Position numbers and translations under genes: made by a program. A stretch of DNA of 48,012 nucleotides. Source: Victivallaceae bacterium. GTDB taxonomy: Bacteria > Verrucomicrobiota > Lentisphaeria > Victivallales > Victivallaceae. Positions 1 through 47,947 of the stretch are shown piece by piece. Where the stretch lies: assembly GCA_018400135.1 (NCBI GenBank), contig JAGYNC010000001.1, positions 1-48,012 of the forward strand, given 5' to 3'. Below the pieces are notes generated by a model. It had not been told where the DNA came from. It ran no database searches and saw nothing but the letters and a program-made list of their open reading frames with translations. Numbering within the stretch: position 1 is the stretch's first letter; the number at the start of each line of letters is the position of its first letter.

Positions 1-1182
1 CGCCGCTCTCCGCGTCGTGGGCACCGTGCCGCATGCCGTTTATAATTTCGTTCCGATGCGCGTTGAAAAGGTGATGAACATGAATACGCTTTTCCGCTGT
101 GACAATTGTGGACAGGATACGCTTGCCGCCACTCCCGATGCCATGCCGGGAGCCAAGTACAGTAATGCTGCCGCCGCTCAAATCATAACGGAATGTTATT
201 TTCATCAGAGCACCATCGGCAACATCGCCCGGCGGCTGAAAGTAAACAAAGGCACGCTGATCGGAATGGCGCACCGTTATGCGGATTTGCTCAAACCGCT
301 GTTTGACCAGACTTTGCTCGAATTGCGAAAATGCGTTTTTCTTCACGCTGACGAAACCGGCTGGTCAATGGACGGCAAACGCTCATATGTCTGGCTTTTC
401 GCCAACGCGCTGTTCCGGGTATTTCTGTTCCGCGATTCCCGCGGCTCCAAGGTGCCTCTGGAAGTTCTGGGACGGGAGAAGCTCATGCTGATTCTGATCG
501 TCGACCGCTATCGCGGCTATCTTCCGTTGCTGGTCGAACGCCAGTTCTGTTTCGTTCATCTTCTGCGCGATGTCAAAAAACTCAAACTGGACTTTCCAGA
601 CGACGCGCAAATCCTGGCATTCTGCGACGATCTGATGCCACAACTGAGCCAAGCCGTCAAGCTGCCGACATTGAGACTGACGCCGGAGGAATATCGCGAC
701 CGGGCGGAGCACATCCGGGAAAGCATCATGGAAATATGCGGCAAACCGTCAAACGATCCCGGTATTCAACATATCCAGGATATTTTCCGGATCAATGAAC
801 ATCAACTTTTTCATTGGGGCAAGAATCCGGATATTCCCTGCGAAAACAATTTCGCGGAACGCAACCTTCGCCCGGTGGTGATTTCACGAAAAACCAGCTT
901 CGGATGCCAGTCTGAAAGAGGAATGCAAACACGGGAAATCCTGATGACCATTCTGCACACCGCCAAGTGTCGGGGCCATGATCCCGCCACATTTCTGGAA
1001 AACGCCCTCAACGTCTTGACCTTGAATCCCAAAGCCGATCTGACGCAATTGCTCTTTTCCGACGCAATTCGTCTCCAGAACGTTGCCTGATTATCGAGCA
1101 ACGCCGGCAATTACGACTACCGGAAAGAGGCGATGCCCACGCATGCTCGAACATCAACGGCCTCGGCGGACTGACCGATTAC
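1..1182 (+). mobile_element. Right-hand part of an IS66-family insertion sequence; proposed right terminus ...CGATTAC at 1176-1182
   Basis: The transposase ends at 1090. IS66 elements end in 5'-GTAA/TTAC-3'. The reverse complement of 1159-1182 reads GTAATCGGTCAGTCCGCCGAGGCC, and AT-rich non-IS sequence starts just after. The left end is off-window, so the inverted repeat cannot be confirmed. Confidence 0.45.
2..1090 (+). CDS. IS66-family transposase (TnpC-like), N-terminus cut by the window edge
   Basis: The frame is open to base 2 with no upstream stop. It has a Zn-ribbon-like CDNCGQD, the HADETGW catalytic region and the C-terminal NNFAERNLRPVVISRKTSFGCQSERG motif typical of IS66 transposases. 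Confidence 0.85.
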   Translation, partial: AALRVVGTVPHAVYNFVPMRVEKVMNMNTLFRCDNCGQDTLAATPDAMPGAKYSNAAAAQIITECYFHQSTIGNIARRLKVNKGTLIGMAHRYADLLKPLFDQTLLELRKCVFLHADETGWSMDGKRSYVWLFANALFRVFLFRDSRGSKVPLEVLGREKLMLILIVDRYRGYLPLLVERQFCFVHLLRDVKKLKLDFPDDAQILAFCDDLMPQLSQAVKLPTLRLTPEEYRDRAEHIRESIMEICGKPSNDPGIQHIQDIFRINEHQLFHWGKNPDIPCENNFAERNLRPVVISRKTSFGCQSERGMQTREILMTILHTAKCRGHDPATFLENALNVLTLNPKADLTQLLFSDAIRLQNVA

Positions 1183-1221
1183 GGCCATTAAACTGAAACA
1201 GTAAAAAATCTCTTTTTTTTC

Positions 1222-1250
1222 TTGCAAATGAAGATTAAGTATGCTATAAT
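1222..1250 (+). promoter_or_regulatory. Near-consensus sigma70-type promoter (TTGCAA, 17-nt spacer, TATAAT)
   Basis: TTGCAA at 1222-1227, a 17-nt spacer, and TATAAT at 1245-1250. It sits in the AT-rich island leader about 600 nt upstream of the primase gene. Confidence 0.3.
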
Positions 1251-1599
1251 ATTAAAAAACCTGTTAGAATCAGGCCAAACGTAAAAAATTAAGGATAGCA
1301 AAAAAAAATGACTTAAAGAAACTATTACGGCACGTTATTAATCAGGAATCGTACGCGCCGGGCAAACCCGTTGGTTTGTTTCGTGTATTCCAACTCCCCT
1401 CCGAAAATCTCGCATGAAAAAATCTGCGATTCTGGTCACTATCTGTGGCTTAGATGATTAGGCGGTTCTTAGCGAACGCAGCCTCACTAGCACATTTGTT
1501 AGTGTTAATTTTATCCTAGGCGAATCCCGCCTCATTAAACTTTTTTGTATTTGTATTAATTATTTGTTATTTATGGCAGTTATTTAGGTGTTGAATATC

Positions 1600-1632
1600 G
1601 TGTTGAAGCTTCCCAGCGGGAAGCTTCAACAC
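1600..1632. repeat. Perfect 15-bp inverted repeat with a 3-nt loop (GTGTTGAAGCTTCCC-AGC-GGGAAGCTTCAACAC)
   Basis: Read directly from the sequence. GTGTTGAA also occurs 12 nt upstream at 1588-1595, and an AT-rich TATTTGT/TTATTT-rich tract precedes it. Confidence 0.8.
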
Positions 1633-1850
1633 GACAGCGTGTCCTATGTGTGGTTCCCTGCCAAAAATGGAACCGCAGATGAAACGTCGGTCGAAAGAAA
1701 TTTTGGTCGTGCCCTCGGGACTATTTCGAGTTCCGGTCGGCAAATGAAAGGCAATGTTTCCGCCCGCGAACTTGGCGGGAAAACCACGTCGGATCGTCCG
1801 GCGATTGCTTCAAGGCTTTGTGGGAAAACAAAAAAATCAAGGAGGATTAA

Positions 1851-3308
1851 ATGAACATTGATACCAGCAAAATAACTAAAAATTGGATGAAAGCCGCTGA
1901 AAAAAATTATGGGAAACCCTTTTTCCCTCAGAAAAGGGGAATGGATAAAATTAATGAAAGCTATTTAGCCGCATTAATCGCGGAAGTCTCGGGCATCAAA
2001 TACTATACGTCCGAAAATAGATTTTATTATTATCACGACGGAACTGGAGAATTTAAGCCCATGACTGACCATTCTGTTCTTGACCTCATTGGAAGAGTGA
2101 TTGTAAAATTGGCAGCCTCCATGGAACAATTTAAAAATATTCCACCTTATTTTTGTACGGCCAGAACACTGGATTCGGTTATAAAGCTAATCAAGGGAAA
2201 ATGTGAAGATTCGACATTTTTCAGTCGCGACCAGCTCCAGCTTCATATCCATTGCGCCAATAAGATGCTGGAATTTGACCGCAAGACGGATCGTTGGATT
2301 GCTAAACCCTTTTCCGCGGCTTATCGGAGCAGAAACAGAAATCCTCTGGCATATGCCCCGCGGGCAAAATGCCCTAAATTTATCGAAAATCTTTTGAAAC
2401 CGGCTATGAATGAAGATGACATCTCTCTTTTCCAGTGTTTTGTCGGACAATGTCTGCTGGGCTATAATTTTGGCCAGATTTTCCTTGTGCTTGTCGGCAT
2501 GGCAGGCGGTGGAAAGTCAACCTCAATCAATATCGTCGAGGGGCTTGTAGGGAAATGGAATTGTGTAGAGTTGCGCATCGAGCACATGGGTAGCAGGTTC
2601 GAAATTGGCCGTATTCACGGGAAAACCCTACTGACCGGCAAAGATATCCAACCCGAGCTATTAAGCGGTTCTTCAGTGGCAAAGCTCAAGTCGCTTACAG
2701 GCGGCGACACGCTCACTGCCGAATTCAAAGGCAGCAATTCCAGACTTGACGTGACTGGCACCGCCAATGTCGCCATCACCTGTAATGGGATTCCCCGATT
2801 CAAGCTGGATCAGGATGTCGATGCGTGGAAAAGACGAATCAGGGTTATTCGCTTTGAAAGACCGCCGACTAAAAATAAAATCGCGAATTTCGATAAGATA
2901 CTGCTTGAGGAAGAAGGGAGCGGTATTTTGAACTGGGCGCTGGAGGGAGCCACGCGCCTTTTGAAAAACGGCGGGCATATTCCCTTGACCATGGAGCAGG
3001 AACTCCGCGTCGATGGAATTATCGACTGTTCGCGCTCTTTCGACGTATTCGCCGACAAGTATATTCATCCAACCGCGAACGCGATAATTTCCACTGCCGA
3101 AGCGGTATCCTTTTACAGCAAGTTTTGCAAAGGAAAAGGATGGGTGCCGATGTCAGAAAGACTCGCCCAAAAAGCTTTTCATGCGTACATGCGAACCCAG
3201 TATGGGGCCTCGCTTCGTACCGATATCAAAGTAATTGACGAAGACGGCAAACTCAAAAACCGCAGAGGTTACGCCGGATATCAAATCACAAACAAAAAAG
3301 GAGTTTGA
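1851..3308 (+). CDS. Phage/plasmid primase-helicase, P4/D5 family (SF3 NTPase)
   Basis: Strong RBS AAGGAGG upstream of the ATG. Walker A is VGMAGGGKST, and the D5_N-like N-terminal region and C-terminal architecture are typical of P4-family primase C-terminal domain proteins. Confidence 0.8.
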   Translation: MNIDTSKITKNWMKAAEKNYGKPFFPQKRGMDKINESYLAALIAEVSGIKYYTSENRFYYYHDGTGEFKPMTDHSVLDLIGRVIVKLAASMEQFKNIPPYFCTARTLDSVIKLIKGKCEDSTFFSRDQLQLHIHCANKMLEFDRKTDRWIAKPFSAAYRSRNRNPLAYAPRAKCPKFIENLLKPAMNEDDISLFQCFVGQCLLGYNFGQIFLVLVGMAGGGKSTSINIVEGLVGKWNCVELRIEHMGSRFEIGRIHGKTLLTGKDIQPELLSGSSVAKLKSLTGGDTLTAEFKGSNSRLDVTGTANVAITCNGIPRFKLDQDVDAWKRRIRVIRFERPPTKNKIANFDKILLEEEGSGILNWALEGATRLLKNGGHIPLTMEQELRVDGIIDCSRSFDVFADKYIHPTANAIISTAEAVSFYSKFCKGKGWVPMSERLAQKAFHAYMRTQYGASLRTDIKVIDEDGKLKNRRGYAGYQITNKKGV

Positions 3309-3310
3309 AA

Positions 3311-4045
3311 ATGCATCCTACTATCGACGACATCGAAAAAACCGTATGTAACGTGTTGAAGCGTAAGACTTCAAGCTCAAGCAGGCGGGAGGAATCAATG
3401 CCTCAAGAACTACTCCCTGCTATTGAGGAACAGGCAAATCTGGCCTTCGCGAGTCAATCATTGCCATCAGGATTACTTTGTCCCGAAGAATCCAACGAGT
3501 ATAAATCCATAAAAAGCGTTCTCGAATATGCGGGGATGCCGACCGATTATTACTGTTTGGATTTTGTCATGAACAACTCTCCGATACGAATGGCTGATCC
3601 TGTCCAGCTGACCATGGCGCAAATAATCGCCTTCTGTCGCGATCTCCGAAGCAATGGCAATAGTTATCCCTTTTTCTTATCCAGCGAGACTTTGTTCTCC
3701 TTGGTAGAGCAAATAGACATGCTCCCCAATATGCTGGGGTTCCACTACCCTGATGCGTTGCGGCGGGAATGTCAATTTCTGGTACCTCGCCCAATCGATG
3801 AAAGAATGCCTATCTCCCAAGTCACTATACCTTTACAGCGCTTCCTGCAAAACCAGCAACACCTGCATTGCCCAAGGATGCTCGGAACGGGACTGTTACT
3901 GTCGCTGTTGCACAGGTTTTTGCGCGGCAACGAAAAGCTGACAAAGGCGGATTGGACGCCGCTCGTGAGAACGGTTGAATCTCCGAACCGTTATGAACCT
4001 CTGGCATTTATTCTCAACGAAACCGTAGATGCATTAACCCCTTAA
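3311..4045 (+). CDS. Hypothetical protein (island cargo)
   Basis: The ATG at 3311 follows RBS AAGGAG at 3297-3302; the track start at 3305 is a TTG. The gene is packed tightly against the primase stop. I recognise no motif. Confidence 0.6.
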   Translation: MHPTIDDIEKTVCNVLKRKTSSSSRREESMPQELLPAIEEQANLAFASQSLPSGLLCPEESNEYKSIKSVLEYAGMPTDYYCLDFVMNNSPIRMADPVQLTMAQIIAFCRDLRSNGNSYPFFLSSETLFSLVEQIDMLPNMLGFHYPDALRRECQFLVPRPIDERMPISQVTIPLQRFLQNQQHLHCPRMLGTGLLLSLLHRFLRGNEKLTKADWTPLVRTVESPNRYEPLAFILNETVDALTP

Positions 4046-4056
4046 AAAAAGGAAAC

Positions 4057-6030
4057 ATGAACATGATAATAACAAAAAGCGCTGGATCAGTGGGGCGGGG
4101 TGTTCTTAAACAACATTTGCAACAAGTTCCATTGAAAAAATATCCCGATTTACAAATATTTCGTGACAACAATCTAGAAAAGGATGCTATTCAATGTTCG
4201 GGAGTCGAGTTAATAATAAGAAACGACATGCACTCCGCTAATCTGCGGAGACGCATGCAAATCTCATTTGATTCTCAAGGCAGCCCGATCTTATGTAACG
4301 GCAGCATAAAAATTCTGCCAAACCAACCGAGCAGTTTTTTTACAGGGTTGTCATTCAACCCATTCTGGCCTCAACCAGAATGCGAACCGACCATTTATCA
4401 ATACGATCAACCAACAAAATACTCGATTTACAACCGGGATTCATCAATTGATGCCAAGTTCATAATGTTGAGAATATGCCAACCGGATGCCAACATAAGT
4501 TACTGCGTGGGTTCTGAGTTTTGGAGCGACAAAGACAAGGAATTCGGGCGTTATCTAGGAAAAGAATGGGATGTATCCGGAGAGTGGAATAGCCGTGAGG
4601 ATTCTATCGACGGCCCATGGAGCCGTGTTCCAATTCAGCAACCTGGTGCTAACATTTTTCGCGCCTTGGATTTTGCGGATACGCCATCTTATTACTTGGA
4701 ATATTACCCCAACGGCAGGAGCTACTCGATCCTGCCGTTACAATTCTATCAGCACCATTCGTATAAATCCCCGCTGAAGCTGTTTGTCCCTCCGCGTCCG
4801 CCATACACGCTAGTCAACTCGCAATATGTGGGCCGCTTTCCTAAGGCAAAAGTGTATCTTACGGATGATTTTTTTTTGGCACTTTTGAATGCACAATGCC
4901 CTGAATATGTTTTCCTGTGGAATCCCGGAGGCAACGCATGGGTTGAAAATCTAGACATAAGCAAATTACACGGGCGCAGGGTAACTTGCCCCGTCGTCCA
5001 AATCCATACCGAAAACCATAATATCGCCCAATCCTACCAATCCGCGCTCAATATGGCGAATAGATTGGAGGCTAGTGGAATTAAAACGGAGTTCTCTGAA
5101 ATCAAATTCCCGCGAAGCCATGATATTGGATTCCAACTACCCGTGGGGCCATGTCTCGAAAGTATTAGAACGAAATCTGGTGATGAAAAAATCATCTCAA
5201 AAAGTGAATTCATAAAACACGCCCAGGCACATGGGGCACATGTTCCAGACCTGTTGAGGCTTGATCGTTTTGGCTGTCTCGATGTTCAGAAACTCGAAAA
5301 AACAATTCCGCTTATTGAAAATTGTGTAGACTCGGGGGAGGTCACGATTATCGTCGAACATAGCAGGATCGATCAAAACATGGTATCAAGCCTGCTGTTT
5401 TCAATATTGATTGGCTCGGGCCGGAATACATTGCCTTTCTGGCGAAAAGTCTCGGATTCACAGCTCTCGTGCTTAGTGTTCCTTGATTTTGACCGTGCTA
5501 AACATTTCATGACCCATTTCCGACGTTATAGCTTGGCGGAAGTGGAGTGTCTGAAAAACTCGATTCACAGCACCAAGATTTTCATGTATCCAGAAAAAGA
5601 TGGATATTCTGAATTCAAAAAATTGGTGGGAATAAAATTACCCAAGGTCGTGATATTTGATGCCGAGTCCCTTAGGCATGGCAACGCGCAGCGAATTCAG
5701 TTACTGAGGAACGTTATGCATTATTGTGCCAGCGAAAATATCGCAGTGGTCATTGTCGTCAGAAGCCAACAGTTACTTCAACTCATACCTTGTCCCGATA
5801 GGCAAATCGAAGTGTGGAGTGACAATTCCGGAGATTCTGCACTTCTGGTCGAAGAAAAAGGAAATCATCAGGGATTTGATCCTTTCAAGATTTCCTTCAA
5901 TAATAAAGACCTCGTAATGGAACCTCTAGACGAAGATGTTCTGGCAAACCTCCCTGAACGCCAGCGTTGGTCAACATATAAGCCTGGTGTTGATCCGGAT
6001 GTTTTGGAAGAACTAAATTCCATGTCATAA
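4057..6030 (+). CDS. Hypothetical 657-aa protein (island cargo), possibly degenerate Toprim-like plus RecA/AAA_25-like regions
   Basis: Long ORF with RBS AAGGAAA, lying 11 nt after the previous stop. There are Walker-B-like hydrophobic-D strands (LVFLDFD, VVIFDAES, IAVVIVV) but no Walker A GKS/T. Confidence 0.65.
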   Translation: MNMIITKSAGSVGRGVLKQHLQQVPLKKYPDLQIFRDNNLEKDAIQCSGVELIIRNDMHSANLRRRMQISFDSQGSPILCNGSIKILPNQPSSFFTGLSFNPFWPQPECEPTIYQYDQPTKYSIYNRDSSIDAKFIMLRICQPDANISYCVGSEFWSDKDKEFGRYLGKEWDVSGEWNSREDSIDGPWSRVPIQQPGANIFRALDFADTPSYYLEYYPNGRSYSILPLQFYQHHSYKSPLKLFVPPRPPYTLVNSQYVGRFPKAKVYLTDDFFLALLNAQCPEYVFLWNPGGNAWVENLDISKLHGRRVTCPVVQIHTENHNIAQSYQSALNMANRLEASGIKTEFSEIKFPRSHDIGFQLPVGPCLESIRTKSGDEKIISKSEFIKHAQAHGAHVPDLLRLDRFGCLDVQKLEKTIPLIENCVDSGEVTIIVEHSRIDQNMVSSLLFSILIGSGRNTLPFWRKVSDSQLSCLVFLDFDRAKHFMTHFRRYSLAEVECLKNSIHSTKIFMYPEKDGYSEFKKLVGIKLPKVVIFDAESLRHGNAQRIQLLRNVMHYCASENIAVVIVVRSQQLLQLIPCPDRQIEVWSDNSGDSALLVEEKGNHQGFDPFKISFNNKDLVMEPLDEDVLANLPERQRWSTYKPGVDPDVLEELNSMS

Positions 6031-6275
6031 ACGTGCCGTAACTCATGCACGCAAAAACAACACAAAAGGAGGTACTCGGAATAAGAAAACAAAATCGGAA
6101 CCAGTAGCAGAACTCACAACAACGCGAGGCAAAAATGAAAGGAACAATCGGGTAAAATGGCTACCCTAGGCCAAAGAACCGAGAGTGGCGTTGAGTGCCG
6201 ATCTCGGTCCGACGACAGATATTCTTCTGTCAAATTTATATTAATAACTCCTTGTGATGGGGAGGCGGAGTTCAG

Positions 6276-6647
6276 GTGAAAACGCTGATGAAAGCACCTG
6301 TCCGTTATACAACTGTGAAACTTATAGGCCGGTTGCTTCAGCCGATTGCAGAAGCCGGGGCTATAAATATTCCAGAACTCAATGAAATTATGGCAAACCT
6401 GCGGCATCTCGCTCAAAAAGGCGAGTTGCTGCCGGATATGCCACCAAAACTTTTGACACAGCGTGAAGTTGCTGAAATGTTAAATATATCATTTCCGCAC
6501 TTTCGTGATTTGGAGCGCGAGGGACATTTTACCTTCCGCAGAAAAATGGTAGGAACTGCCGTTCGCTATTACAATATTGAAGTAGTGAAGTACATTTTAT
6601 CGCTTGACGAAGATGCCAATTTTTCGAGACAGGCTAAAATCGCATAA
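6276..6647 (+). CDS. Small HTH DNA-binding protein, excisionase/AlpA/MerR-like
   Basis: The segment LTQREVAEMLNISFPHFRDLEREGHF is typical of excisionase-family HTH domains. The gene converges on the integrase and is followed by an intrinsic terminator. It uses a GTG start; an alternative ATG lies at 6288. Confidence 0.55.
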   Translation: MKTLMKAPVRYTTVKLIGRLLQPIAEAGAINIPELNEIMANLRHLAQKGELLPDMPPKLLTQREVAEMLNISFPHFRDLEREGHFTFRRKMVGTAVRYYNIEVVKYILSLDEDANFSRQAKIA

Positions 6648-6660
6648 ACTTGTTTGATGG

Positions 6661-6696
6661 GCCTCGGGAAAGAAACACAACTTCCCGAGGCTTTTT
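6661..6696 (+). terminator. Rho-independent terminator (GCCTCGGGAA-loop-TTCCCGAGGC followed by TTTTT)
   Basis: A 10-bp GC-rich stem and a T-run directly follow the HTH gene stop, between the convergent genes. Confidence 0.65.
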
Positions 6697-6710
6697 CATA
6701 TCAGGAAAGT

Positions 6711-8084
6711 TTATCCACCCAAAATGGCGCGAAGCCGTTTCAATAGCCCAGTTGTAGGCTCGGGGTTCTGGGCCAGCAAAGCAAGCGCTTTTCTGATTCG
6801 CTCTTGAGGGCTGTCGCCCGTTGTTGTCATGGTATCGGTAATTGCCGCGATAGCCTGTTTTTGGGAGTCGCTTGAGACATGAGTGTAGAATTTATCGGCT
6901 ATTTTAGAGTCCGTGCCGAGAATCGATAACAGAGTAGATTTCGGGACGTTTGCCTCGGCACAAAACGAACAAAAAGAATGCCTGAGAGAGTGGAAGCCGT
7001 AGACCGTCATTTTTTTTGCTCGACCAGGTACTTTGACCGAAGGCTCCAGCCGAATCCAGCGGATTACGCGCATCACGTCTATGTTCACGAGGTTGTTCCC
7101 AACGTTTTTCCCGAGAGCGTTGGTTTTGTTATAACGGGCAGCGGTTTTCGGACACACATAGAGTTCCTTTCGCCAGCCTTCGGCTTCTCTCAGTGCCTCC
7201 AATAACGGAGGGGCGATGGGAATGGTTACATTCCTGCCGGTCTTGTACTGATGAACGTAAAGCTGGCCGAGGGCAAAATCAATATTTTGCCACTGCATTA
7301 AAACACAATCCTTCATCCGCTGACCTGTATACATACCAATTATATAAATTATTCTGATCTCATTTTTGTTGATCAATTTGCGTTCAGGATTTTTCAATTC
7401 TCTAAGCAAGGCCTGCTCCTGTTCCCTGGTGAAAGCCTGACGGCGAATCACCGATGATTGTTCTTCTCGAACATTGCGCAGCAATGATTTTTTACGGAAG
7501 GGGTTTTCGTGTTCGCAATAGTCTCCCAATACATCGAGGATTTTTCGTAAACGCTTTATCTTGCGGTTGTGGGTATCCACCGCCAGACTATTGGTTCTCA
7601 ACATGGACGCGTATTCTTCGGCAACCGCTGGAGTAATCTCGTTTATCGAGGAAATAATCGTGTGCAGAATTTCTCTGCTGGCAGTTGGAGAAGAGACAAA
7701 ATCCACGAACTCCTTGAAGGTCGATTGATAGGCCAACTGTTCGCTAACGGTATGTGGCATGGCGCGATCAGGACTTGCTGAATATTTTGCCCACGCATCT
7801 TCAATCGGCAGAATTTGACTGCGTTTGGCAAAACCTCTGGCAGCGCTGACATGCGCGGCGACGATTTCCACCTGATTTGCCTTTACAATCGGGATGAGTT
7901 CCTTGGCTTTTCGTTCCGCTTCGTTTTTGTTGTGAGTCTTCAGCGGAACATCTTTTCGCTGACCGTTGATCTGATAGCGAAAATAGTATGTGCCTCCTTT
8001 GACTTTTTGCCTGATTGATCCGAATTCGAGTTTCATGCAAATGACCTTGGTTTGTCTTGACATAAACGCATTCCTGTAAACCAC
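6711..8084 (-). CDS. int: Tyrosine-type site-specific recombinase/integrase
   Basis: Catalytic signature present: YTGQRMKD (R), HSLRHSF (HxxR) and FYTH (Y). It is adjacent to a tRNA 3' end. Alternative ATG starts lie at 8063 and 8036. Confidence 0.9.
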   Translation of the reverse strand: MVYRNAFMSRQTKVICMKLEFGSIRQKVKGGTYYFRYQINGQRKDVPLKTHNKNEAERKAKELIPIVKANQVEIVAAHVSAARGFAKRSQILPIEDAWAKYSASPDRAMPHTVSEQLAYQSTFKEFVDFVSSPTASREILHTIISSINEITPAVAEEYASMLRTNSLAVDTHNRKIKRLRKILDVLGDYCEHENPFRKKSLLRNVREEQSSVIRRQAFTREQEQALLRELKNPERKLINKNEIRIIYIIGMYTGQRMKDCVLMQWQNIDFALGQLYVHQYKTGRNVTIPIAPPLLEALREAEGWRKELYVCPKTAARYNKTNALGKNVGNNLVNIDVMRVIRWIRLEPSVKVPGRAKKMTVYGFHSLRHSFCSFCAEANVPKSTLLSILGTDSKIADKFYTHVSSDSQKQAIAAITDTMTTTGDSPQERIRKALALLAQNPEPTTGLLKRLRAILGG

Positions 8085-8174
8085 AGGTTACAGCACAATA
8101 TATCACGATCATGGACTATGCAAAGGCAAAGTGGGGAAAAGTGGGTCAAAAAAGAAGAAATTTGAGGCTAAAAA

Positions 8175-8264
8175 TGGCGGAGAGAGAGGGATTCGAACCC
8201 TCGGTGGAGTTACCCCCACACAGCATTTCCAATGCTGCGCCTTCGACCACTCGGCCATCTCTCC
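8175..8264 (-). tRNA. tRNA-Ser (anticodon GGA), 90 nt with a long variable arm and encoded CCA
   Basis: The reverse complement reads GGAGAGATGGCCGAGTGGTCGAAGGCGCAGCATTGGAAATGCTG...GAGGGTTCGAATCCCTCTCTCTCCGCCA. The acceptor stem is GGAGAGA/TCTCTCC, the anticodon loop is TTGGAAA, and the T-loop is GGTTCGAATCC. Confidence 0.93.
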
Positions 8265-8366: not shown

Positions 8367-8470
8367 GTAATGCCTCACTCTTTCCTTTGGTTCGGGGTCA
8401 ATACTACACAGCCTCGTCGTTACTCCTCGGGTGTCGTAGCCTCGACCCCACCCAAAGAGTGAGGTATTAC
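8367..8470 (+). repeat. Family-A MITE-like hairpin repeat, copy A1 (intact)
   Basis: GTAATGCCTCACTCTTT...AAAGAGTGAGGTATTAC forms a 17-bp terminal inverted repeat. The 8-bp flanks are GGGGGCGT and AGGGGTGT (6/8 identical). Confidence 0.8.
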
Positions 8471-11762: not shown

Positions 11763-11832
11763 GTAACGCCTCACTCTTTTTCTACTGGCTGCCCGCTTTC
11801 GTCGCCGTTCTCCTCAGACGATATGATAACAT
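11763..11832 (+). repeat. Family-B repeat, copy B1 (5' half only; 3' terminus lost)
   Basis: GTAACGCCTCACTCTTTTTCTACTGGCTGCCCGCTTTCGTCGCCGTTCTCCTCAGACGATATGATA aligns with 36399-36470. Confidence 0.7.
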
Positions 11833-11833
11833 A

Positions 11834-12457
11834 TTAACTGGTCGAAACAGTATCACGGAGTGCCAACGCTATTTCTGATTCGGTGATCGGTCCGGGACGA
11901 AGTATGATAAATCCGTTATTGTCAACCTTGACTACGGTCGAAGCCAAATTACCCAGTGGTATAATCCCGGCATCAATCGCCAAATCAGGGGATGTGTGTA
12001 ATTCCGCCAGAGCTTCCTCTACAGTCAGTGCGTTAGCTGCTCCAGAACGGTTGGCGCTGGTGGATGCCAACGGGAAGCCCCCATGCTTCAACAACTTGAG
12101 CATAAAAGGATGATCGGGAATGCGAAACCCAACTGTACCGTTATCTGTCCCCGGAATCACCAGAGTCAGTGGGCCGGGGCAAAACGCGTCAATCAACTGC
12201 CTGGCTGTAGATTTTACAACCACACCAGCACGTTCGACCATATTGACAGAAGCGGCAAACATCGCCAACGGCTTATTCTGGTGACGTCCTTTCATCTCGT
12301 AGATTCGCTGGATCGCCGCCTGGTCTTCCCACCGGCAGAACAAGCCGTAAACCGTTTCAGTGGGTAATAAAGCAACCGCGCCGGGTGCTTTAAAAATATT
12401 CAGCGTTGCAGCGACAAGTTCCGCCGCATTGTTGTTCCGTAGCTGGTAACTTTCCAT
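11834..12457 (-). CDS. tsaC: L-threonylcarbamoyladenylate synthase (Sua5/YwlC/TsaC family)
   Basis: LLPTETVYGL motif and TsaC-like fold length. The start was moved to MESYQL (12457) because the 48 upstream codons of the longest ORF translate repeat copy A2. Confidence 0.8.
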   Translation of the reverse strand: MESYQLRNNNAAELVAATLNIFKAPGAVALLPTETVYGLFCRWEDQAAIQRIYEMKGRHQNKPLAMFAASVNMVERAGVVVKSTARQLIDAFCPGPLTLVIPGTDNGTVGFRIPDHPFMLKLLKHGGFPLASTSANRSGAANALTVEEALAELHTSPDLAIDAGIIPLGNLASTVVKVDNNGFIILRPGPITESEIALALRDTVSTS

Positions 12458-12481
12458 AAGCGTTAATTCATATAATTTCCG

Positions 12482-12575
12482 GCAATGCCTCACTCTTTCC
12501 CTTTGGTTCGGGGTCAATACTACACAGCCTCGTCGTTCCTCCTCGGGTGTCGTAGCCTCAACCTCGCCCCAATAG
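12482..12575 (+). repeat. Family-A repeat, copy A2 (3' terminus degenerate)
   Basis: GCAATGCCTCACTCTTTCCCTTTGGTTCGGGGTCAATACTACACAGCCTCGTCGTTCCTCCTCGGGTGTCGTAGCCTC, after which it diverges. Confidence 0.75.
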
Positions 12576-12641
12576 CGTGGCCGTCTGCTGCGTCTACGCA
12601 CTCAACGTGGTTCACGCGAAGTGTTACTACTGGCTCAACAA

Positions 12642-14378
12642 TCACCAGTTCTTTCTCGGAGTATAGTGGGTGTGCAGCAATTCATGTGCTTTTTTGCTGC
12701 CCGGCTTATCCAGATATTCATCATACAATTTGATAACATCAGGATTCTGATGCGATTTGCGCAACGACAATCCGCTGTCCGCTTTATAGATGGCTTCTTT
12801 GCGTTTTTCGAGAATTTTGGTATCCCCATGAATATAAGGCTGACCGCCGCCGTTCAGACAACCGCCGGGACAGGCCATAATCTCGATAGCATGATACTGC
12901 GCCTTCCCGGACTTGATGCGGTCAAGCAATTTACGGGCATTGCCAAGACCGGAAGCTATTGCCACTTTTACATCCGTACCAGCAACTTTGACAGTGGTAT
13001 CTCTGATACCGGACAGGCCGCGCACTTCCTCAAAGTCAAACTCTTTCAGGTCCTCTCCAGAAAGCCAGTCAGCAGCAGTACGCAGCGCGGCTTCAAGAAC
13101 GCCGCCGGAAGCCCCAAAAATAACACCGGCGCCAGTGGATTCACCCAGCGGACTATCGAATTGCTGTTCTTCCAGCTTGTTGATATGGATACCAGCTTCC
13201 TTGAACATGTCGGCCAATTCCCGCGTGGAAATCACAATATCCACATCCGGCACACCGTCGCGGGTAAATTCACTACGTGATGCTTCATACTTTTTAGCCA
13301 GACACGGCATAACAGAAACAACCACAATGTCTTCCGGCTTCAAACCCATTTTTTCGGCATAGTATGATTTGGCCACAGCACCGAACATTTGTTGCGGCGA
13401 CTTAGCGCTTGACGGCATATAGATCAGCTCCGGGAACTGGTGTTCAAGAAACTTCACCCAGCCGGGGCAGCACGAAGTCAGAATCGGCAGATTCTCATTT
13501 TTCTTCAAGCGATCAATAAATTCGGTGGTTTCTTCCATAATAGTCAAATCGGCGGCAAAGTCGGTATCGAATACTTTGTCGAACCCAAGCAATTTTAACC
13601 CGGCAACCAGTTTGCCGGTAGCAATCTCTCCCGGTGCCATACCAAACTCTTCGCCAATAGCCACACGTACCGCAGGTGCCGTCTGAACAACGACATGCTT
13701 TTTCTCGTTATTCAGCGCTCGCCAGACGTTGTACTTATAGTTCTGTTCGGTTAAAGCGCCCACCGGACAAGCGGCCACACACTGACCGCAGAAAACACAT
13801 TTAGTTTCGCTCAACGGGCGAAGACCGGGAGTCCCTACTACCGCCTCAAATCCTCTGCCGACACCGGAGAGAATTCCGACCGTCTGAACATTATTGCAGG
13901 CGTTTTCGCAGCGACGACACATGATACATTTGTCTAAATCCCGGACAATGGCGTTACAGGCGAGATCAATGTCATATTTGGATTGTCTGCCTTCATAAAG
14001 CAAATGGTGTAAATCCATTTCGCTGGCTAACCGCTGCAATTCGCAGTTGCCGTTCTTTTCGCAGGTAAGACAATCTTTTGGATGATCCGAAAGAATCAGA
14101 TCCAACATTGTTCGCCTGGCGTTAATTGCCCGGAGAGTACTGGTTTTTACTACCATTCCTTCATTTACCGGAGTACAACATGCTGGTGCCAGATTGTTAC
14201 GTCCCTCGACTTCAACAACGCATATCCGGCATGACCCCATCCGGTTCTCAATTGTGAAGCAATCCAATTCAAGATGGCACAACGTCGGAATACGAATGCC
14301 GATTTTATCAGCTGCCTGGAGTATGGTTGACCCCTTTTTCACCCGAACCGGCAGATTATTAATGCTAAGATTAATCAT
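12642..14378 (-). CDS. hydA: [FeFe]-hydrogenase catalytic subunit (group A3, HydA-type)
   Basis: H-cluster motifs TSCCPGW, MPCLAKKYE and EIMACPGGCLNGGGQP, plus an N-terminal 2Fe-2S and multiple 4Fe-4S Cys clusters. Confidence 0.92.
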   Translation of the reverse strand: MINLSINNLPVRVKKGSTILQAADKIGIRIPTLCHLELDCFTIENRMGSCRICVVEVEGRNNLAPACCTPVNEGMVVKTSTLRAINARRTMLDLILSDHPKDCLTCEKNGNCELQRLASEMDLHHLLYEGRQSKYDIDLACNAIVRDLDKCIMCRRCENACNNVQTVGILSGVGRGFEAVVGTPGLRPLSETKCVFCGQCVAACPVGALTEQNYKYNVWRALNNEKKHVVVQTAPAVRVAIGEEFGMAPGEIATGKLVAGLKLLGFDKVFDTDFAADLTIMEETTEFIDRLKKNENLPILTSCCPGWVKFLEHQFPELIYMPSSAKSPQQMFGAVAKSYYAEKMGLKPEDIVVVSVMPCLAKKYEASRSEFTRDGVPDVDIVISTRELADMFKEAGIHINKLEEQQFDSPLGESTGAGVIFGASGGVLEAALRTAADWLSGEDLKEFDFEEVRGLSGIRDTTVKVAGTDVKVAIASGLGNARKLLDRIKSGKAQYHAIEIMACPGGCLNGGGQPYIHGDTKILEKRKEAIYKADSGLSLRKSHQNPDVIKLYDEYLDKPGSKKAHELLHTHYTPRKNW

Positions 14379-14396
14379 GAGAAGAAAGTCTCCTTG

Positions 14397-16235
14397 TTAA
14401 ATTCTGTCAATAGCGTGGAATTTGCAAGTGTTATAACACACGCCGCACTTGATGCATTTGTCCTGATCAATAACGTGCTGTTCCTTGCGTTCTCCGGCAA
14501 TGCACTGTACCGGACAGTTTCTCGCGCACAGTGTACACCCAACGCACTGATCATTGATAACATAGCTGATCAGTTTGGTACAAACACCGGCCAGACAGCG
14601 TTTATCCTTGACGTGAGACTGGTATTCATCAGCAAAATTGCTAAGCGTTGACAACACCGGATTAGGTGAAGTCTGACCCAAACCGCACAACGCGGTATCT
14701 TTGATGGTGAGCGCCAGTGTCTTAAGTTTTGTCAGGGTTTCTTCGGTGCCGTTGCCTTCACAAATCTGCTCAAGCATTTCAAATAATCGGGTATTGCCGA
14801 TCCGGCACGGAGTGCACTTCCCGCAAGATTCGTCAAGTGTAAATTCCAGGAAAAATTTGGCGATATTCACCATGCAATCATCCTCGTCCATAACAATCAT
14901 GCCGCCTGAACCCATCATTGACCCAAGCGCTTTCAGTGAATCATAATCAATCGGGGTGTCAAGTTGCGATGCGGGCAAAGCGCCGCCGGACGGACCGCCA
15001 GTTTGTACCGCTTTGAATTCCTTGTCATTGTAAATACCACCGCCAAGGTTGAAAATAATATCTCTTAACGCAGTGCCCATCGGCACTTCGATCAGTCCTA
15101 CGCGTTTGATTTTGCCAGCCAGGGCAAATACCTTGGTGCCGGGTGATTTTTCAGTGCCGATCCGACGAAACCAGGCTGCACCCAAACGGATAATTGCTGT
15201 AATATTGGCAAAAGTTTCAACGTTGTTGACAATTGTCGGTTTTCCCCAAAGACCTGAAATGGCGGGGTACGGCGGTTTGAACGTCGGTTCACCGCGCTTC
15301 CCCTCGATTGAATGAATCAGCGCTGTTTCTTCACCGCAGACAAAAGCGCCAGCGCCGTACTTAAGTTCAATATGAAAATCAAAGTCGCTACCAAGAATAT
15401 TTTTTCCCAGCAGCCCGGCATTTTCCGCCTGTTCGATAGCAATCCGCAGGCGTTTAATCGCCAGGGGATATTCAGCGCGGATATAGATGTATCCTTCATG
15501 TGCACCAATGGCATAACCAGCGATGGCCATGGCTTCAAGTACGGAATGCGGGTCTCCCTCCAGCACCGCGCGATCCATAAATGCTCCCGGGTCGCCTTCG
15601 TCTGCGTTGCAAATCAGGTATTTAACATCGGATTCCTGATTGGCAGCAAATTCCCACTTTTTACCAGTCGGAAATCCGCCTCCACCGCGGCCACGCAGAC
15701 CAGAGGCCAGAATCTCGTCAATAACCGCACGCGCGCTCATCTCTGTTAATACCTTGCCCAATGCCTGATAACCATTATTGGCGACGTAGTCATCAAGCCG
15801 TTCCGGATTAACACGGCCACTGTTGCGTAGCACTATCCGGGCCTGCAATTGTTGTTCTCCGGGCTCTTCCAGCTCAGGATAGTACCAGGTACGATTAACA
15901 GTGTCTACTCCGACAGCCGCGCCATCGAGGTTTTTAACAATAACCGGTGCATCACCAGGTTTAACATTGCCGTAAATAATTGATTTGCCAGTTTGGGTAT
16001 TTTCTATTTCAATGCTCGGTTCGCAGTAACACAATCCCATACAGCCGGTTTCAACCAATTTAACACTTGACTCAAGATTGCGTTCAGCGATTTCCTTTTG
16101 CAAAGCAGCAAGCACCGGGGTAGCGCCAGCGGCGATGCCACAGGTCCCCATCGACACCATCACTTTGATTGGCTGCTTGGTTGGGGCACGTAATTCACGC
16201 GCCCGTTGCGACAGTTTATCAATATTATCAAACAT
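14397..16235 (-). CDS. hydB: NuoF-like NAD(H)/FMN-binding subunit of a bifurcating hydrogenase (HydB)
   Basis: [20 protein letters not shown] motif and C-terminal 2x[4Fe-4S] ferredoxin CxxCxxCxxxCP motifs. The ATG at 16235 has RBS GAAGGAAGG; the track start at 16253 is a TTG. Confidence 0.9.
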
Positions 16236-16253
16236 GATTATTCCTTCCTTCAA

Positions 16254-16790
16254 CTATGCGCATTCGTTAATGATATCCGGCACCATCTTCGCAGTCACTT
16301 TGCCGTACACCTTGTCATTGACCATTACCACCGGAGCCAGGCTGCATGCCCCCACACATCTCAATGAGTTGAGTGAAAACTTCCGATCTGCGGAAGTTTC
16401 CCCCACTTCAAGATTCAGATAACGCTTGAACTCATCCAATACTGCTCCGGCTCCCTTGACAAAACACGCGGTGCCGGTACAGACATGAATTTTGTACTTA
16501 CCAACCGGTTTATCGGTAAAATAGGAATAAAAACTTATAACACCATAAACTTCCGAAAGATGAAGTTTGAGTTTGTCGGCCACAAACAATTGAACACACA
16601 GCGGCAGATAACCGAATATGTCTTGCGCCTTATGCAAACTTTGTATAAGTAATCCGCGATTTTTCTCGCGATTGTTACCAATGTCCAAAGATTGAATGTA
16701 CTCTTCGAGTTTTTTGCGCTTATCAGGAAACTCTTCAATCAGATTCAGTTCCTGCGGCTTCTGTTCGTCACAATGACATGACATGACCAC
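16254..16790 (-). CDS. hydC: NuoE-like 2Fe-2S thioredoxin-fold subunit (HydC)
   Basis: NuoE-type pattern CTGTACFVKG...CVGACSLAPV, and it is the first gene of the hydCBA operon. Confidence 0.88.
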   Translation of the reverse strand: MVMSCHCDEQKPQELNLIEEFPDKRKKLEEYIQSLDIGNNREKNRGLLIQSLHKAQDIFGYLPLCVQLFVADKLKLHLSEVYGVISFYSYFTDKPVGKYKIHVCTGTACFVKGAGAVLDEFKRYLNLEVGETSADRKFSLNSLRCVGACSLAPVVMVNDKVYGKVTAKMVPDIINECA

Positions 16791-16912: not shown

Positions 16913-17009
16913 GTAATCCTTTGGGTGGGGGCGAAGCTACGACACTCGAGGAGAAACGACGAGGCTGTGTAGTATTGACCCCGAACCAAAGAAAAGAGTG
17001 AGGCTTTAC
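16913..17009 (-). repeat. Family-A repeat, copy A3 (inverted orientation; 8-nt deletion in one terminus)
   Basis: GTAATCCTTTGGGTGGGGGCGAAGCTACGACACTCGAGGAGAAACGACGAGGCTGTGTAGTATTGACCCCGAACCAAAGAAAAGAGTGAGGCTTTAC is the reverse complement of the A consensus. Confidence 0.8.
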
Positions 17010-17094
17010 TGAGCGATTACCAAATCTCTGATAACTTAAGAAAAAAGTTGATTTATTTTAATAGTTATGTTATAATTATGGAATATTCGAAAAG

Positions 17095-34837: not shown

Positions 34838-36145
34838 TCAAGCCTTGTACACGTTCGGCCCCGGTTGCATCGCGTTACGGGTATCAATAATCAGTTTTGC
34901 TTCTCGTGCTAAACGTTGATAATCAAGGCCATCGTGCGCAGTGGAAATGAGCACGGCATCATAATCCGGCGCGTTTTCCAGTGGCACGCTCTTAATCCCC
35001 TCGAACTGCGGGTGTTCACGCATGTGGGGAGCTTCAGGACAATAGGGGTCGCAATAGTCAACTTTGGCCCCACGCTCTTCCAGCAGCTGCCACAGCTTGA
35101 AGCTTGGGCTTTCACGCGGATCATCAACATTTTTCTTGTAAGCCAGCCCCACCAACAATATTCTGGCGTTTTTCATCGCGATGCCGTTGATGCTCATGAT
35201 TTCAATCATTCGGCTTATGACATGATACGGCATGTAGGTATTAATTTCGCCGGCAAGTTCAATAAAACGGGTCGGGGTATCGTATTCCCGTGATTTCCAG
35301 GTGAGATAAAAAGGATCAATCGGAATACAGTGGCCACCGAGTCCGGGTCCCGGATAAAACGGCATGAAACCGAACGGCTTGGTGGCGGCGGCATCAATCA
35401 CCTCCCAAACATCAATCCCCATTTTTTCAAAAACTACTTTGAGTTCATTGACCAATGCGATGTTAACCGCCCGAAAAATATTTTCCAACAATTTAGTCGC
35501 TTCTGCCGTTGAGGCAGATGACACCGGAACCGTCCGGCAGATGACGGCATCATACAGTGCCCGAGCACCCTGGAGACTGCGTTCATCTATGCCGCCGACC
35601 ACTTTGGGGATGGTTGAAGTTGAAAAATTCTTGTTGTTCGGATCTTCGCGTTCCGGCGAGTAAGCAACAAGAAAATCCTTACCGGCCTTAAGTCCGCTTC
35701 CTTTTTCCAGAATGGGGATCAAGACTTCTGTGGTTGTTCCCGGATAAGTGGTTGACTCCAGACAGTAGAGCTGACCGCGACGCACATGGGATGCCAGAGT
35801 TTCGGCGGTAGAAACAATATAACTCATGTCCGGTTCGCGATGGCGAGTCAGCGGTGTCGGCACACAGATGAGAATGGCATCACATGACGCGATTTGGCTG
35901 AAATCATCTGTTGCGTCAAACCGGTTGGACGCATTGAGTTGAGCTATTTTATCCGATAAAATATGACGAATGTAAGATTTTGATGCAAGCAATGCATCAA
36001 CTTTTTTTTGATCAATATCAAGTCCCAGTACCTTGAATCCGGCGCGACAGAACTCCAATACCAACGGCAACCCAACGTAACCAAGACCAACAACTCCAAT
36101 CCGGGCATCACGTTTCGTCATTTTATCAAGAAAGTTTTCAGGCAT
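34838..36145 (-). CDS. Nucleotide-sugar dehydrogenase (UDP-glucose/GDP-mannose dehydrogenase family)
   Basis: N-terminal IGVVGLGYVGLPL Rossmann motif and the catalytic GLGGHCIPIDP motif. Confidence 0.88.
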   Translation of the reverse strand: MPENFLDKMTKRDARIGVVGLGYVGLPLVLEFCRAGFKVLGLDIDQKKVDALLASKSYIRHILSDKIAQLNASNRFDATDDFSQIASCDAILICVPTPLTRHREPDMSYIVSTAETLASHVRRGQLYCLESTTYPGTTTEVLIPILEKGSGLKAGKDFLVAYSPEREDPNNKNFSTSTIPKVVGGIDERSLQGARALYDAVICRTVPVSSASTAEATKLLENIFRAVNIALVNELKVVFEKMGIDVWEVIDAAATKPFGFMPFYPGPGLGGHCIPIDPFYLTWKSREYDTPTRFIELAGEINTYMPYHVISRMIEIMSINGIAMKNARILLVGLAYKKNVDDPRESPSFKLWQLLEERGAKVDYCDPYCPEAPHMREHPQFEGIKSVPLENAPDYDAVLISTAHDGLDYQRLAREAKLIIDTRNAMQPGPNVYKA

Positions 36146-36193: not shown

Positions 36194-36297
36194 GTAACCC
36201 CTCACTCTTTCCTTTGGATCGGGGTCAATACTACACAGCCTCATCGTTCCTCCTCGGGTGTCGTAGCCTCGACCCCACCCAAAGAGTGAGGCATTAC
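36194..36297 (+). repeat. Family-A MITE-like repeat, copy A4 (intact)
   Basis: GTAACCCCTCACTCTTT...AAAGAGTGAGGCATTAC, flanked by GATTATTT and AATTATTT (7/8 identical). Confidence 0.85.
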
Positions 36298-36398
36298 AAT
36301 TATTTTGTGCTAATTTAACGATTGACGTACAATACTTAGAATTTATCACTTTATTGTGGTAAAATCAATCGGAGTATTGGAGTAGTCTGCAAAATCTG

Positions 36399-36500
36399 GC
36401 AACACCTCACTCTTTTTCTACTCGTTGCCCGCTTTCATCGCCGTTCTCCTGAACCGATATGATAGTCCCCCCGACAAATCAGGATTGAGTGAGGCGCTAC
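36399..36500 (+). repeat. Family-B MITE-like repeat, copy B2 (intact)
   Basis: GCAACACCTCACTCTTTTTCTAC...GATTGAGTGAGGCGCTAC, flanked by AAAATCTG and GAAATCTT (6/8 identical). Confidence 0.8.
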
Positions 36501-36611
36501 GAAATCTTAATTTTATCCGTCTTATTTTGTAAATTTGATTTGAAGCAACGGCAATTTCGGGATAAACTATCTGAAGTATAAATCAAAACAAAAAATTACA
36601 AAGGAGATATC

Positions 36612-37589
36612 ATGGCTGTCTGTTATCGCGACCTGGGATTGGTCAATACTCGTGAAATGTTCGCCAAGGCAATGGAAGGCAAATACGCTATCCCCGCCTA
36701 CAACTTCAACAACATGGAACAACTGCAAGCGATTATTTCGGCTTGTGTTGAAACTGAATCACCGGTAATTTTGCAAATATCCAAAGGTGCTCGTGAGTAT
36801 GCCAATCAAACGCTTTTGCGTTATATGGCACAGGGCGCGGTGGAATACGCCAAAGAACTCAGTGGCGGCAATGCTATTCCGATCGCTGTGCATTTGGATC
36901 ATGGTCCTGATTTTGATGTCTGCAAGAGTTGCATTGATTTCGGATTTTCATCAGTAATGATTGACGGTTCTCATCTGTCTTTCGATAAGAATATTGAAGA
37001 GACCCGCAAGGTGGTTGAGTACGCGCATCAGCATGATGTAACAGTCGAAGGCGAACTGGGAGTACTGGCCGGAAAGGAAGATGATGTTGAAGCTGAAGAA
37101 CACATCTACACCCAGCCGGATGAAGTAGAAGAGTTTGTTAAACGCACCGGTGTTGACAGCCTGGCGATTGCCATCGGCACGTCTCATGGAGCTTTCAAAT
37201 TTAAACCCGGAACAGATCCAAAAATCCGACTTGACATACTCGCCGAGATTGAAAGACGTATTCCCGGCTTCACCATTGTTCTACATGGCTCGTCTTCAGT
37301 GCCGGCAGAGCTGGTTGCCATTATCAATCAATATGGCGGCAAGTTGAAAGACGCTATCGGTATTGGCGAAGACCAACTACGTAAAGCAGCTAAATCAGCA
37401 GTGTGCAAAATCAATATTGATTCCGATGGACGCCTGGCCATGACGGCCGCAATTCGCAGGGTGCTTGCAGAGAAACCGGCGGAGTTTGATCCGCGAAAAT
37501 ATCTCGGTCCGGCCCGCGAGGCGCTGAAAGAACTTTATATGCATAAGAATGTCAAAGTCCTCGGTTCTGCCGGCCATGCCTTCGATTGA
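36612..37589 (+). CDS. fba: Class II fructose-1,6-bisphosphate aldolase
   Basis: VHLDHG, GTSHGAFKF and LHGSSSVP motifs, with RBS AAAGGAG. Confidence 0.92.
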   Translation: MAVCYRDLGLVNTREMFAKAMEGKYAIPAYNFNNMEQLQAIISACVETESPVILQISKGAREYANQTLLRYMAQGAVEYAKELSGGNAIPIAVHLDHGPDFDVCKSCIDFGFSSVMIDGSHLSFDKNIEETRKVVEYAHQHDVTVEGELGVLAGKEDDVEAEEHIYTQPDEVEEFVKRTGVDSLAIAIGTSHGAFKFKPGTDPKIRLDILAEIERRIPGFTIVLHGSSSVPAELVAIINQYGGKLKDAIGIGEDQLRKAAKSAVCKINIDSDGRLAMTAAIRRVLAEKPAEFDPRKYLGPAREALKELYMHKNVKVLGSAGHAFD

Positions 37590-44825: not shown

Positions 44826-44897
44826 GTAATCGCTCACTCTTTGGGCGTCGAGGCTGCGACACCCGAGGAGGAACGATTGGTGCTCTGTAAAGTCAAT
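44826..44897 (-). repeat. Family-A repeat, copy A5 (decayed; inverted orientation)
   Basis: GTAATCGCTCACTCTTTGGGCGTCGAGGCTGCGACACCCGAGGAGGAACGA matches the reverse-complement A consensus with a 3-nt deletion. The remainder is degenerate. Confidence 0.65.
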
Positions 44898-45681
44898 CTT
44901 GTGATTGCGGCTTCGGAGTGAAAGATAAAAAAGGCGGAATAAAATCCGCTGCTTTCAAAGGAACATTGAGTTTATAAAGAATAATTTTGTATTTACTTGC
45001 TGTTTGCCCGCTTTGTACAGTAATTTCATCTGGAATCATCACATTATCGTAAAGCGCGTATCTTTCAATGGTGGCGTGATAGCGTTCGCTTCCTTTGTCG
45101 TTAAGAAGAGTATTAATACTTTTGGTCAAAAAGTTATTTTTCCCCACATAGATGTTGAACGGCTGTTGTCCTTCTACCGCAGAAATGCACTCAAGGCGAT
45201 AGTAAGGTTTGTTGTCACGCAAAATGCATTGTGAAAGCCGGATTTCAGGAAAAAGCTGCTGGTAGGAGCGATCCGGCCGGCTCATACCAAAAAAGACGCG
45301 CATCCGCTCAAGAGTTATACCCTCAATTTTGGTTGTTCGTTGCTTACGATAATCAACCACCCAGGCTTCACGGCCATCGAAGAAAATAGCGGTAACCGGT
45401 TTATTTTCTTCAATTGTCGTCATTCTCAGAAATTCGGGGCGTTTAAAAATGGTTTCTACAATATAGTGTCGAGCCTGGCTGCCGCTTTCCACTAACATCT
45501 GACGTTGTACATAAGATTGAGCTTGGCGAAACACGCCATTGGGGTCCATCGTCTTTCGCATTTTTTGTTCAAGTGAGTCAAGACTGATATCGGCCGGTTG
45601 ATATTTCGGTTCAAAGGTTGAACAACCTGTAAGCATAAAGCCAAGCATTACCAGCCCGATAATTATACGCGATAACATCAT
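44893..45681 (-). CDS. Hypothetical lipoprotein (LolA-like candidate)
   Basis: Signal peptide with lipobox MLTGCS, starting at MMLSRII. Confidence 0.6.
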   Translation of the reverse strand: MMLSRIIIGLVMLGFMLTGCSTFEPKYQPADISLDSLEQKMRKTMDPNGVFRQAQSYVQRQMLVESGSQARHYIVETIFKRPEFLRMTTIEENKPVTAIFFDGREAWVVDYRKQRTTKIEGITLERMRVFFGMSRPDRSYQQLFPEIRLSQCILRDNKPYYRLECISAVEGQQPFNIYVGKNNFLTKSINTLLNDKGSERYHATIERYALYDNVMIPDEITVQSGQTASKYKIILYKLNVPLKAADFIPPFLSFTPKPQSQD

Positions 45682-47866: not shown

Positions 47867-47947
47867 GTAAGGCCTCACTCTTTCCTTTGGTTCGGGGTCA
47901 ATACTACACAGCCTCGTCGTTCCTCCTCGGGTGTCGTAGCCTCGACC
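47867..47947 (+). repeat. Family-A repeat, copy A6 (3' terminus missing)
   Basis: GTAAGGCCTCACTCTTTCCTTTGGTTCGGGGTCAATACTACACAGCCTCGTCGTTCCTCCTCGGGTGTCGTAGCCTCGACC, after which it is unrelated sequence. Confidence 0.75.

Follow-up and report, generated by a model that had tools for sequence, protein, structure and literature searches.

A probable MITE-like element with IS66-type ends shares its terminus with a second repeat family in a Victivallaceae contig

Results

Repeats and mobile elements of the contig

The window, i.e. the whole stretch of DNA that was analysed, is an entire contig of 48,012 bp, and its relevant features are collected in Table 1. In the 466-bp divergent region between a gene of the UDP-glucose/GDP-mannose dehydrogenase family and class II fba lie two short repeats, A4 and B2, which are separated by 101 bp; the positions agree with those given in a first-pass annotation of this DNA. 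A4 is a member of family A, a set of repeats of ~104 bp represented in the window by two complete, three damaged and one diverged copy. B2 represents a second type, family B, with two copies in 48 kb, one of them (B1) one-ended.

The contig opens within an insertion sequence (IS). Positions 2-1090 encode the C-terminal 362 codons of a transposase, identified as DDE_Tnp_IS66 (PF03050, E = 1.4e-30) in a Pfam scan of the open reading frames (ORFs), and the presence of a repeat at the contig start probably caused the assembly break. The adjoining interval (1183-8264) looks like an integrated mobile element at tRNA-Ser(GGA); a search of 1100-6720 detected no att direct repeat of the tRNA end.

Several further observations concern the family-A copies. 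A2 and A3 are inverted relative to one another and bracket a three-gene [FeFe]-hydrogenase/NuoF-like/NuoE-like cluster (12642-16790), with their intact ends facing outward and their damaged ends inward, a layout resembling that of a composite transposon. A composite transposon around the hydrogenase operon was rejected because the outer 8-bp flanks (AATTTCCG and TGAGCGAT) do not match. Just outside the left end of A3, on the minus strand at 17010-17020, GTAATCGCTCA forms an 11-nt partial second terminus (junction GTAATCGCTCA/GTAAAGCCTCACTC), which may be a remnant of an earlier or nested insertion, and GATTTG is directly repeated on both outer sides at A3. The mechanically called ORF of the Sua5/YciO/YrdC-family gene (11834-12601, minus strand) runs ~50-60 codons upstream through A2. 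In this ORF the Pfam domain is not reached until residue 74; a true start close to 12430 is therefore probable, and the extra codons would be an artefact of the inserted MITE.

Table 1. Features of the 48,012-bp window discussed in the text.
Feature	Position	Strand	Remarks
Right-hand part of IS66-family insertion sequence, cut by contig start	1..1182	+	transposase fragment and right inverted repeat
DUF5906 protein	1851-3308		upstream of integrase
Large ORFs without family match	3305-6030		
Tyrosine integrase gene	6711-8084	-	adjoins tRNA-Ser(GGA)
tRNA-Ser(GGA)	8175-8264	-	
A1, full family-A element	8367..8470	+	flanks GGGGGCGT / AGGGGTGT, 6/8 match
B1, left 66 nt of family-B element, right part missing	11763..11828	+	start GTAACGCCTCACTCTTT, canonical end
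A2, family-A copy	12482..12587	+	decayed right end, GCAAT tip
A3, family-A copy	16913..17009	-	short deletion in right inverted repeat
UDP-glucose/GDP-mannose dehydrogenase-family gene	34838-36145	-	
A4, full family-A element, 104 bp	36194..36297	+	whole-length hairpin; flanks GATTATTT / AATTATTT, 7/8 match
Left copy of imperfect 8-bp target-site duplication of B2	36391..36398	.	AAAATCTG; 6/8 against 36501-36508
B2, two-ended family-B element, 102 bp	36399..36500	+	left end GCAACACCTCACTCTTT, right end GAGTGAGGCGCTAC
Right copy of imperfect 8-bp target-site duplication of B2	36501..36508	.	GAAATCTT
Class II fba	36612-37589	+	325-aa product
Diverged A-like copy	44826..44925	+	terminus GTAATCGCTCACTC, intermediate between MITE end and IS end
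A5, family-A copy truncated on right	47867..47947	+	

Sequence and anatomy of the family-B elements

The complete sequence of B2 is GCAACACCTCACTCTTT TTCTACTCGTTGCCCGCTTTCATCGCCGTTCTCCTGAACCGATATGATA GTCCCCCCGACAAATCAGGATT GAGTGAGGCGCTAC. Family B had been described in the first-pass annotation as an intact copy at 36399-36500 and a copy at 11763 consisting of the 5′ part only. Both were recovered, and the similarity was measured to extend to 11828: positions 11763-11828 and 36399-36464 are identical at 58 of 66 nucleotides (88%), from the first G to GATATGATA, where the likeness ends. The similarity begins exactly at the terminus, the flanks of B1 and B2 being unrelated. A 25-mer from the B interior is present at two places in the window (B1 and B2) against 0 expected, and the right-hand 22-mer of B2 occurs once. 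Five nucleotides separate the end of B1 from the stop codon (11834-11836) of the Sua5/YciO/YrdC-family gene, which runs on the minus strand. A candidate residual right end of B1 within the 3′ end of this gene (GAGTG..CGCTA, 11858-11871) was rejected, being weakly alike and showing neither a duplication nor a significant alignment.

The right end of B2, read as its reverse complement (GTAGCGCCTCACTC), matches the left end of the same element at 11/14 positions and the left end of B1 at 13/14, consistent with the earlier description of the intact copy as ending in an inverted repeat of its start. The terminal tetranucleotides of B2 are GCAA and GTAG, in place of the GTAA that starts the left end of B1 and seven A-type ends. 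One frame is open across B2, but no start codon follows the upstream stop before the element is reached; the 102 bp contain no Pfam-scale ORF and no transposase gene. When B2 was folded, only the terminal repeat paired (z = -1.3, no better than shuffled sequence), and an Rfam search gave no match for the repeats. A structured RNA was rejected on these two grounds.

A and B share a 17-nt terminus and flanking 8-bp duplications

The starts of A and B elements have a 17-nt terminus in common, GYAAYNCCTCACTCTTT. Its core, CCTCACTCTTT, has 10 matches in the window where 0.57 are expected. All 10 window occurrences of the 8-mer CCTCACTC were found at element edges, in A or in B copies, indicating that within the window the terminus never stands alone as a solo motif; the first-pass annotation had named such a motif, present without the rest of the element, as an observation that would count against its proposal. 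In every copy of A and B the repeat boundary is the G of G(T/C)AA, with unrelated sequence outside. The interiors of A and B were compared in both orientations and showed no significant similarity, with 120 to 520 of 1000 shuffles scoring equally or better. The two families thus agree in their terminus, in where the element begins and, as the flanks described below show, in how long the target duplication is; the shuffle test bears out the view that the interior of B is unlike that of A. Family A forms a single long hairpin (DNA z = -5.3 and -5.8), and its inverted repeat spans 17 nt or more as against 14 nt in B2.

The flanks of the three two-ended copies (A1, A4 and B2) were examined by setting the k bases left of each element against the k bases right of it, with k from 4 to 10. 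The most matches were obtained at k = 8 in each copy (A1 6/8, A4 7/8, B2 6/8), and for B2 this was the sole flank length with a good match; the flanks AAAATCTG and GAAATCTT thus bear out the 6/8 agreement reported earlier. At random window positions the probability of 6 or more matches in 8 is 0.006 and that of 7 or more is 0.0007, giving a joint chance of 2.6e-8 for the three 8-bp flank matches, or 2e-7 under a stricter AT-rich null. All three duplications are imperfect.

Both copies of B are old and probably immobile. B2 looks dead because its tips differ from the conserved GTAA, a difference taken as decay, and because its duplication carries two mismatches, while B1 looks dead because its right end is lost. 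The A copies, which are 90-94% identical and have several damaged ends, are old as well. An intact 11-mer core remains in 9/14 ends, roughly the proportion that neutral decay would leave, giving no sign of selection on the motif.

The shared terminus resembles the ends of IS66-family insertion sequences

Insertion sequences of the IS66 family have 20-30-bp inverted repeats starting GTAAGCG and are flanked by 8-bp direct repeats (PMC11946415), as exemplified by ISDge4, with inverted repeat GTAACTGCTCAGCA and an 8-bp direct repeat (PMC12898284), and by the inverted repeat GTAACCGTCCGGGCA (PMC12888890). A GTAA tip together with an 8-bp duplication is a hallmark of the family, and the A and B elements resemble these ISs in both respects.

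The IS at the contig start ends at 1182 with GTAATCGGTCAGTCC. Read as the reverse complement, its right inverted repeat is the 18-mer GTAATCGGTCAGTCCGCC, located at 1165-1182 on the minus strand, 92 bp beyond the transposase stop codon, and this 18-mer is identical to the ends of related complete ISs, fixing the right end of the window IS at 1182. Homologues of the transposase (~540 aa, up to 74-75% identical) are encoded in metagenome-assembled genomes (MAGs) of Victivallaceae and other Lentisphaerota. The loci retrieved are two-gene ISs in which an ORF of ~101-104 aa (DUF6788) is followed by the DDE_Tnp_IS66 gene; one copy with GTAATCGGTCAGTCCGCC inverted repeats is flanked by a perfect 8-bp duplication, ACGGAACC. 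Perfect duplications of this length were seen at loci L021 and L026. The L026 element, a complete IS66-family IS of 2110 bp in a Victivallales MAG, belongs to a second class of this IS type, whose 524-aa transposase is 52% identical to the window fragment; its ends read GTAACGCGTCAGTCTTT (longer reading GTAACGCGTCAGTCTTTATTTTAGG), and its duplication is GGAATTAG. Two other loci of the 524-aa class (P0153 and P0150) were rejected as further ISs, being without recognisable GTAA ends.

Aligned from the tip, the L026 end and the B1 terminus GTAACGCCTCACTCTTT agree in 15 of their 17 nucleotides. The L026 end matches the A1 left, A4 left and A4 right ends at 14-15/17 and the A1 right end at 13/17. 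The end of the window's own IS agrees with the A/B terminus at 10/17, representing a different inverted-repeat variant. The only consistent differences fall at positions 8 and 12 of the terminus, where every MITE end has C and every IS end seen has G. An IS with the exact A/B terminus was not found among the IS ends sampled, the closest being that of L026, from another Victivallales MAG. From position 18 inward, none of the IS ends sampled resembles A or B; the idea that A and B are deletion derivatives of the window IS or the L026 IS was rejected, as no significant subterminal similarity was detected.

The IS subgroup displays at least two inverted-repeat types in Lentisphaerota (GTAATCGGTCAGTCC and GTAACGCGTCAGTCTTT), and the inverted repeat of B2 is shorter than that of A. 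Both observations would fit a situation in which A and B were moved by two different, related IS66-family transposases, with the 17 shared nucleotides reflecting common descent of the ends. We consider this improbable, because the A and B ends share C8, C12 and a TCTTT tail, unlike every IS end sampled, and these shared features make one enzyme for A and B likelier than two. That the very same transposase moved both families is the reading to which we incline, albeit with little more than even confidence.

Searches for copies beyond the window

The B-specific 18-mer CCTCACTCTTTTTCTACT was searched against genome contigs and gave nine matches, all in unrelated sequence from unrelated taxa; the copies in the window were not among them. 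A degenerate pattern covering A and B gave four random matches only in metagenome contigs, and three scans of viral contigs (A/B pattern, general terminus, B interior) returned either nothing or single unpaired random matches. A peptide search was also performed, using a chimeric query assembled from all open frames of A and B against 5.8 billion proteins. It returned nothing for B and one match for A, in which a copy is joined to the 3′ end of gene P0121, located on a different contig. In this 278-aa protein (NCBI, 7381-bp contig) the last 31 residues (VTPHSLGGVEAATPEEERRGCVVLTPLQRKE) correspond to a translated family-A element, demonstrating that family A exists outside the window. The 3′ end of this gene was thus either extended into a MITE copy or replaced by one.

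With two copies known, 88% identical and one of them without a right end, B might be a sporadic derivative of family A or of a parent IS, whose interior was replaced (through aberrant gap repair, template switching or nested deletion) and which was then copied once, or duplicated in part through recombination instead of transposition. B has the same termini as family A, and drift and replacement of interiors in this lineage are evident from the diverged A-like variant at 44826. We nevertheless regard such an origin as unlikely. B2 is flanked by an 8-bp duplication of its own, in the correct register, and no similarity is left between the A and B interiors. Moreover, the flanks of B1 and B2 are unrelated and the likeness starts from the terminus on, as expected for a transposed B-type progenitor.

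The intergenic region between fba and the dehydrogenase gene

When both elements and their duplications are subtracted from the 466-bp region, about 244 bp remain. The sequence upstream of fba in relatives measures 196-261 bp, a correspondence that lends weak support to insertion. Homologues of fba with 84-88% identity are found in MAGs assigned to Lentisphaerae or Victivallaceae, and it is on them that the placement of the genome in Lentisphaerota is based; the closest homologue loci in this identity range are not syntenic with the window. The terminus motif is absent from the orthologous fba upstream regions of relatives. Scans with consensus promoters produced marginal matches only, one of which lies between A4 and B2 (36315-36342, plus strand). 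A4 and B2 may influence the promoters of fba or of the dehydrogenase gene; no effect on expression is claimed. A separate observation concerns an ENA scaffold (L010, protein P0001) encoding a 508-aa class II aldolase homologue, which scores above the window's own 325-aa fba product, has a long extra region and sits in a different gene neighbourhood.

All A and B copies are intergenic and several are located in promoter or terminator regions, and family A forms a strong hairpin. These properties would be expected if the shared terminus were a regulatory or protein-binding motif (an operator or an uptake-like signal) and the repeats were conserved regulatory modules. This explanation is highly improbable: within the window the terminus was never seen without the rest of the element, occurring instead as inverted pairs at element boundaries with 8-bp duplications in the flanks; it matches the end of a real IS66-family transposon at 15/17 positions; B folds no better than shuffled sequence; and the motif is missing upstream of fba in relatives.

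Discussion

B has the size of a MITE, a terminal inverted repeat, an 8-bp near-duplication and no gene. Its relation to IS66 elements is seen in the GTAA tip, in the 8-bp length of the duplication, in an end matching that of L026 at 15/17 and in a transposase gene of the family in the same genome. Taken together, these observations support the interpretation of B as a MITE-like element with IS66-type ends, to which we assign a probability of roughly three in four. It is standard practice to link a MITE with its IS through the ends and the length of the duplication, and MITEPsy1 was connected with ISPsy2 in this way. New here are the common 8-bp duplication length of the three two-ended copies, the identification of the IS66 family and the recognition of the IS fragment at the contig start.

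We infer that A and B were mobilised in trans. In the mechanism that we propose, an IS66-family DDE transposase encoded elsewhere would bind ends of 14-17 nt, cleave at the GTAA tips and insert the element into a staggered 8-bp cut, the repair of which would generate the flanking duplication. Since family A shares these ends and the length of the duplication, it and B would most likely have been moved by one transposase or by very close relatives. The transposase would be of the two-gene type found in Victivallales, in which a DUF6788 ORF precedes DDE_Tnp_IS66. The mobilising enzyme is predicted to recognise GTAAYNCCTCACTCTTT, and the L026 class may be the closest known relative of the enzyme's own IS.

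The first-pass annotation had proposed two MITE families served by one transposase. The MITE anatomy, the shared 17-nt terminus, the element boundary, the duplication length and the IS66-type ends all favour this proposal. It was not sustained as far as B would be a family beyond two copies, an IS with the exact terminus did not come to light, and the single transposase is deduced from the shared ends.

The elements can be compared with bacterial MITEs for which a source IS has been proposed. MITEPsy1 of Pseudomonas syringae was assigned to ISPsy2 by shared terminal repeats (PMC3189936), and an ISCca4-related MITE is present in Cardinium (PMC9769881). A and B resemble these elements in being ~100 bp long and devoid of genes, in having IS-like inverted repeats and duplications of IS length, and in their intergenic copies; in each case trans mobilisation was proposed from end similarity. 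In contrast to both examples, the matching IS for A and B comes from another organism and differs at 2/17 positions, B has two copies, and two element types with unrelated interiors share one end; the elements described here are known from their sequence alone. Compared with the DUF6788 plus DDE_Tnp_IS66 insertion sequences of Victivallales and other Lentisphaerota MAGs (loci L021-L026), A and B have a closely similar terminus (15/17 against L026) and reside on a contig with such an IS, but they are without a transposase, are ~20 times shorter, have C rather than G at positions 8 and 12, and show no subterminal similarity. In the literature searched, few descriptions of IS66-family MITEs were encountered.

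Eukaryotic MITE superfamilies share only inverted repeats and duplication with the source of their transposase, as seen in the pairings of Stowaway with Tc1/mariner and of Tourist with PIF/Harbinger. By analogy only, A and B recall these systems, in which shared ends suffice for the cross-mobilisation of several families whose interiors are unrelated; the eukaryotic systems belong to another domain of life and involve another transposase superfamily.

MITEs are routine components of bacterial genomes, and in this sense the biology described here is unsurprising. In practical terms, the repeats should be masked or annotated as IS66-type MITEs. They account for breaks in the assembly, for ORFs that are spuriously extended (as in P0121) and for the enlargement of intergenic regions in this Lentisphaerota MAG. 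The sequence GTAAYNCCTCACTCTTT combined with an 8-bp duplication constitutes a clean signature for finding the cognate IS, and GYAAYNCCTCACTC with its complement, as inverted pairs 60-3000 bp apart, can serve as a search pattern for such elements.

A more far-reaching scenario, which we regard as speculative and improbable, is that an IS66-family transposase variant specific for C8/C12 ends spawned several unrelated MITE families by capture of 17-nt ends, and that some of the elements (the family-A hairpin, the pair between fba and the dehydrogenase gene) were perhaps co-opted as regulatory or RNA-structure modules. If this were true, it would document IS66-driven cross-mobilisation and MITE genesis in bacteria. 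If one enzyme does act on both families through 17 shared nucleotides alone, A and B would provide a compact bacterial model of transposase cross-mobilisation.
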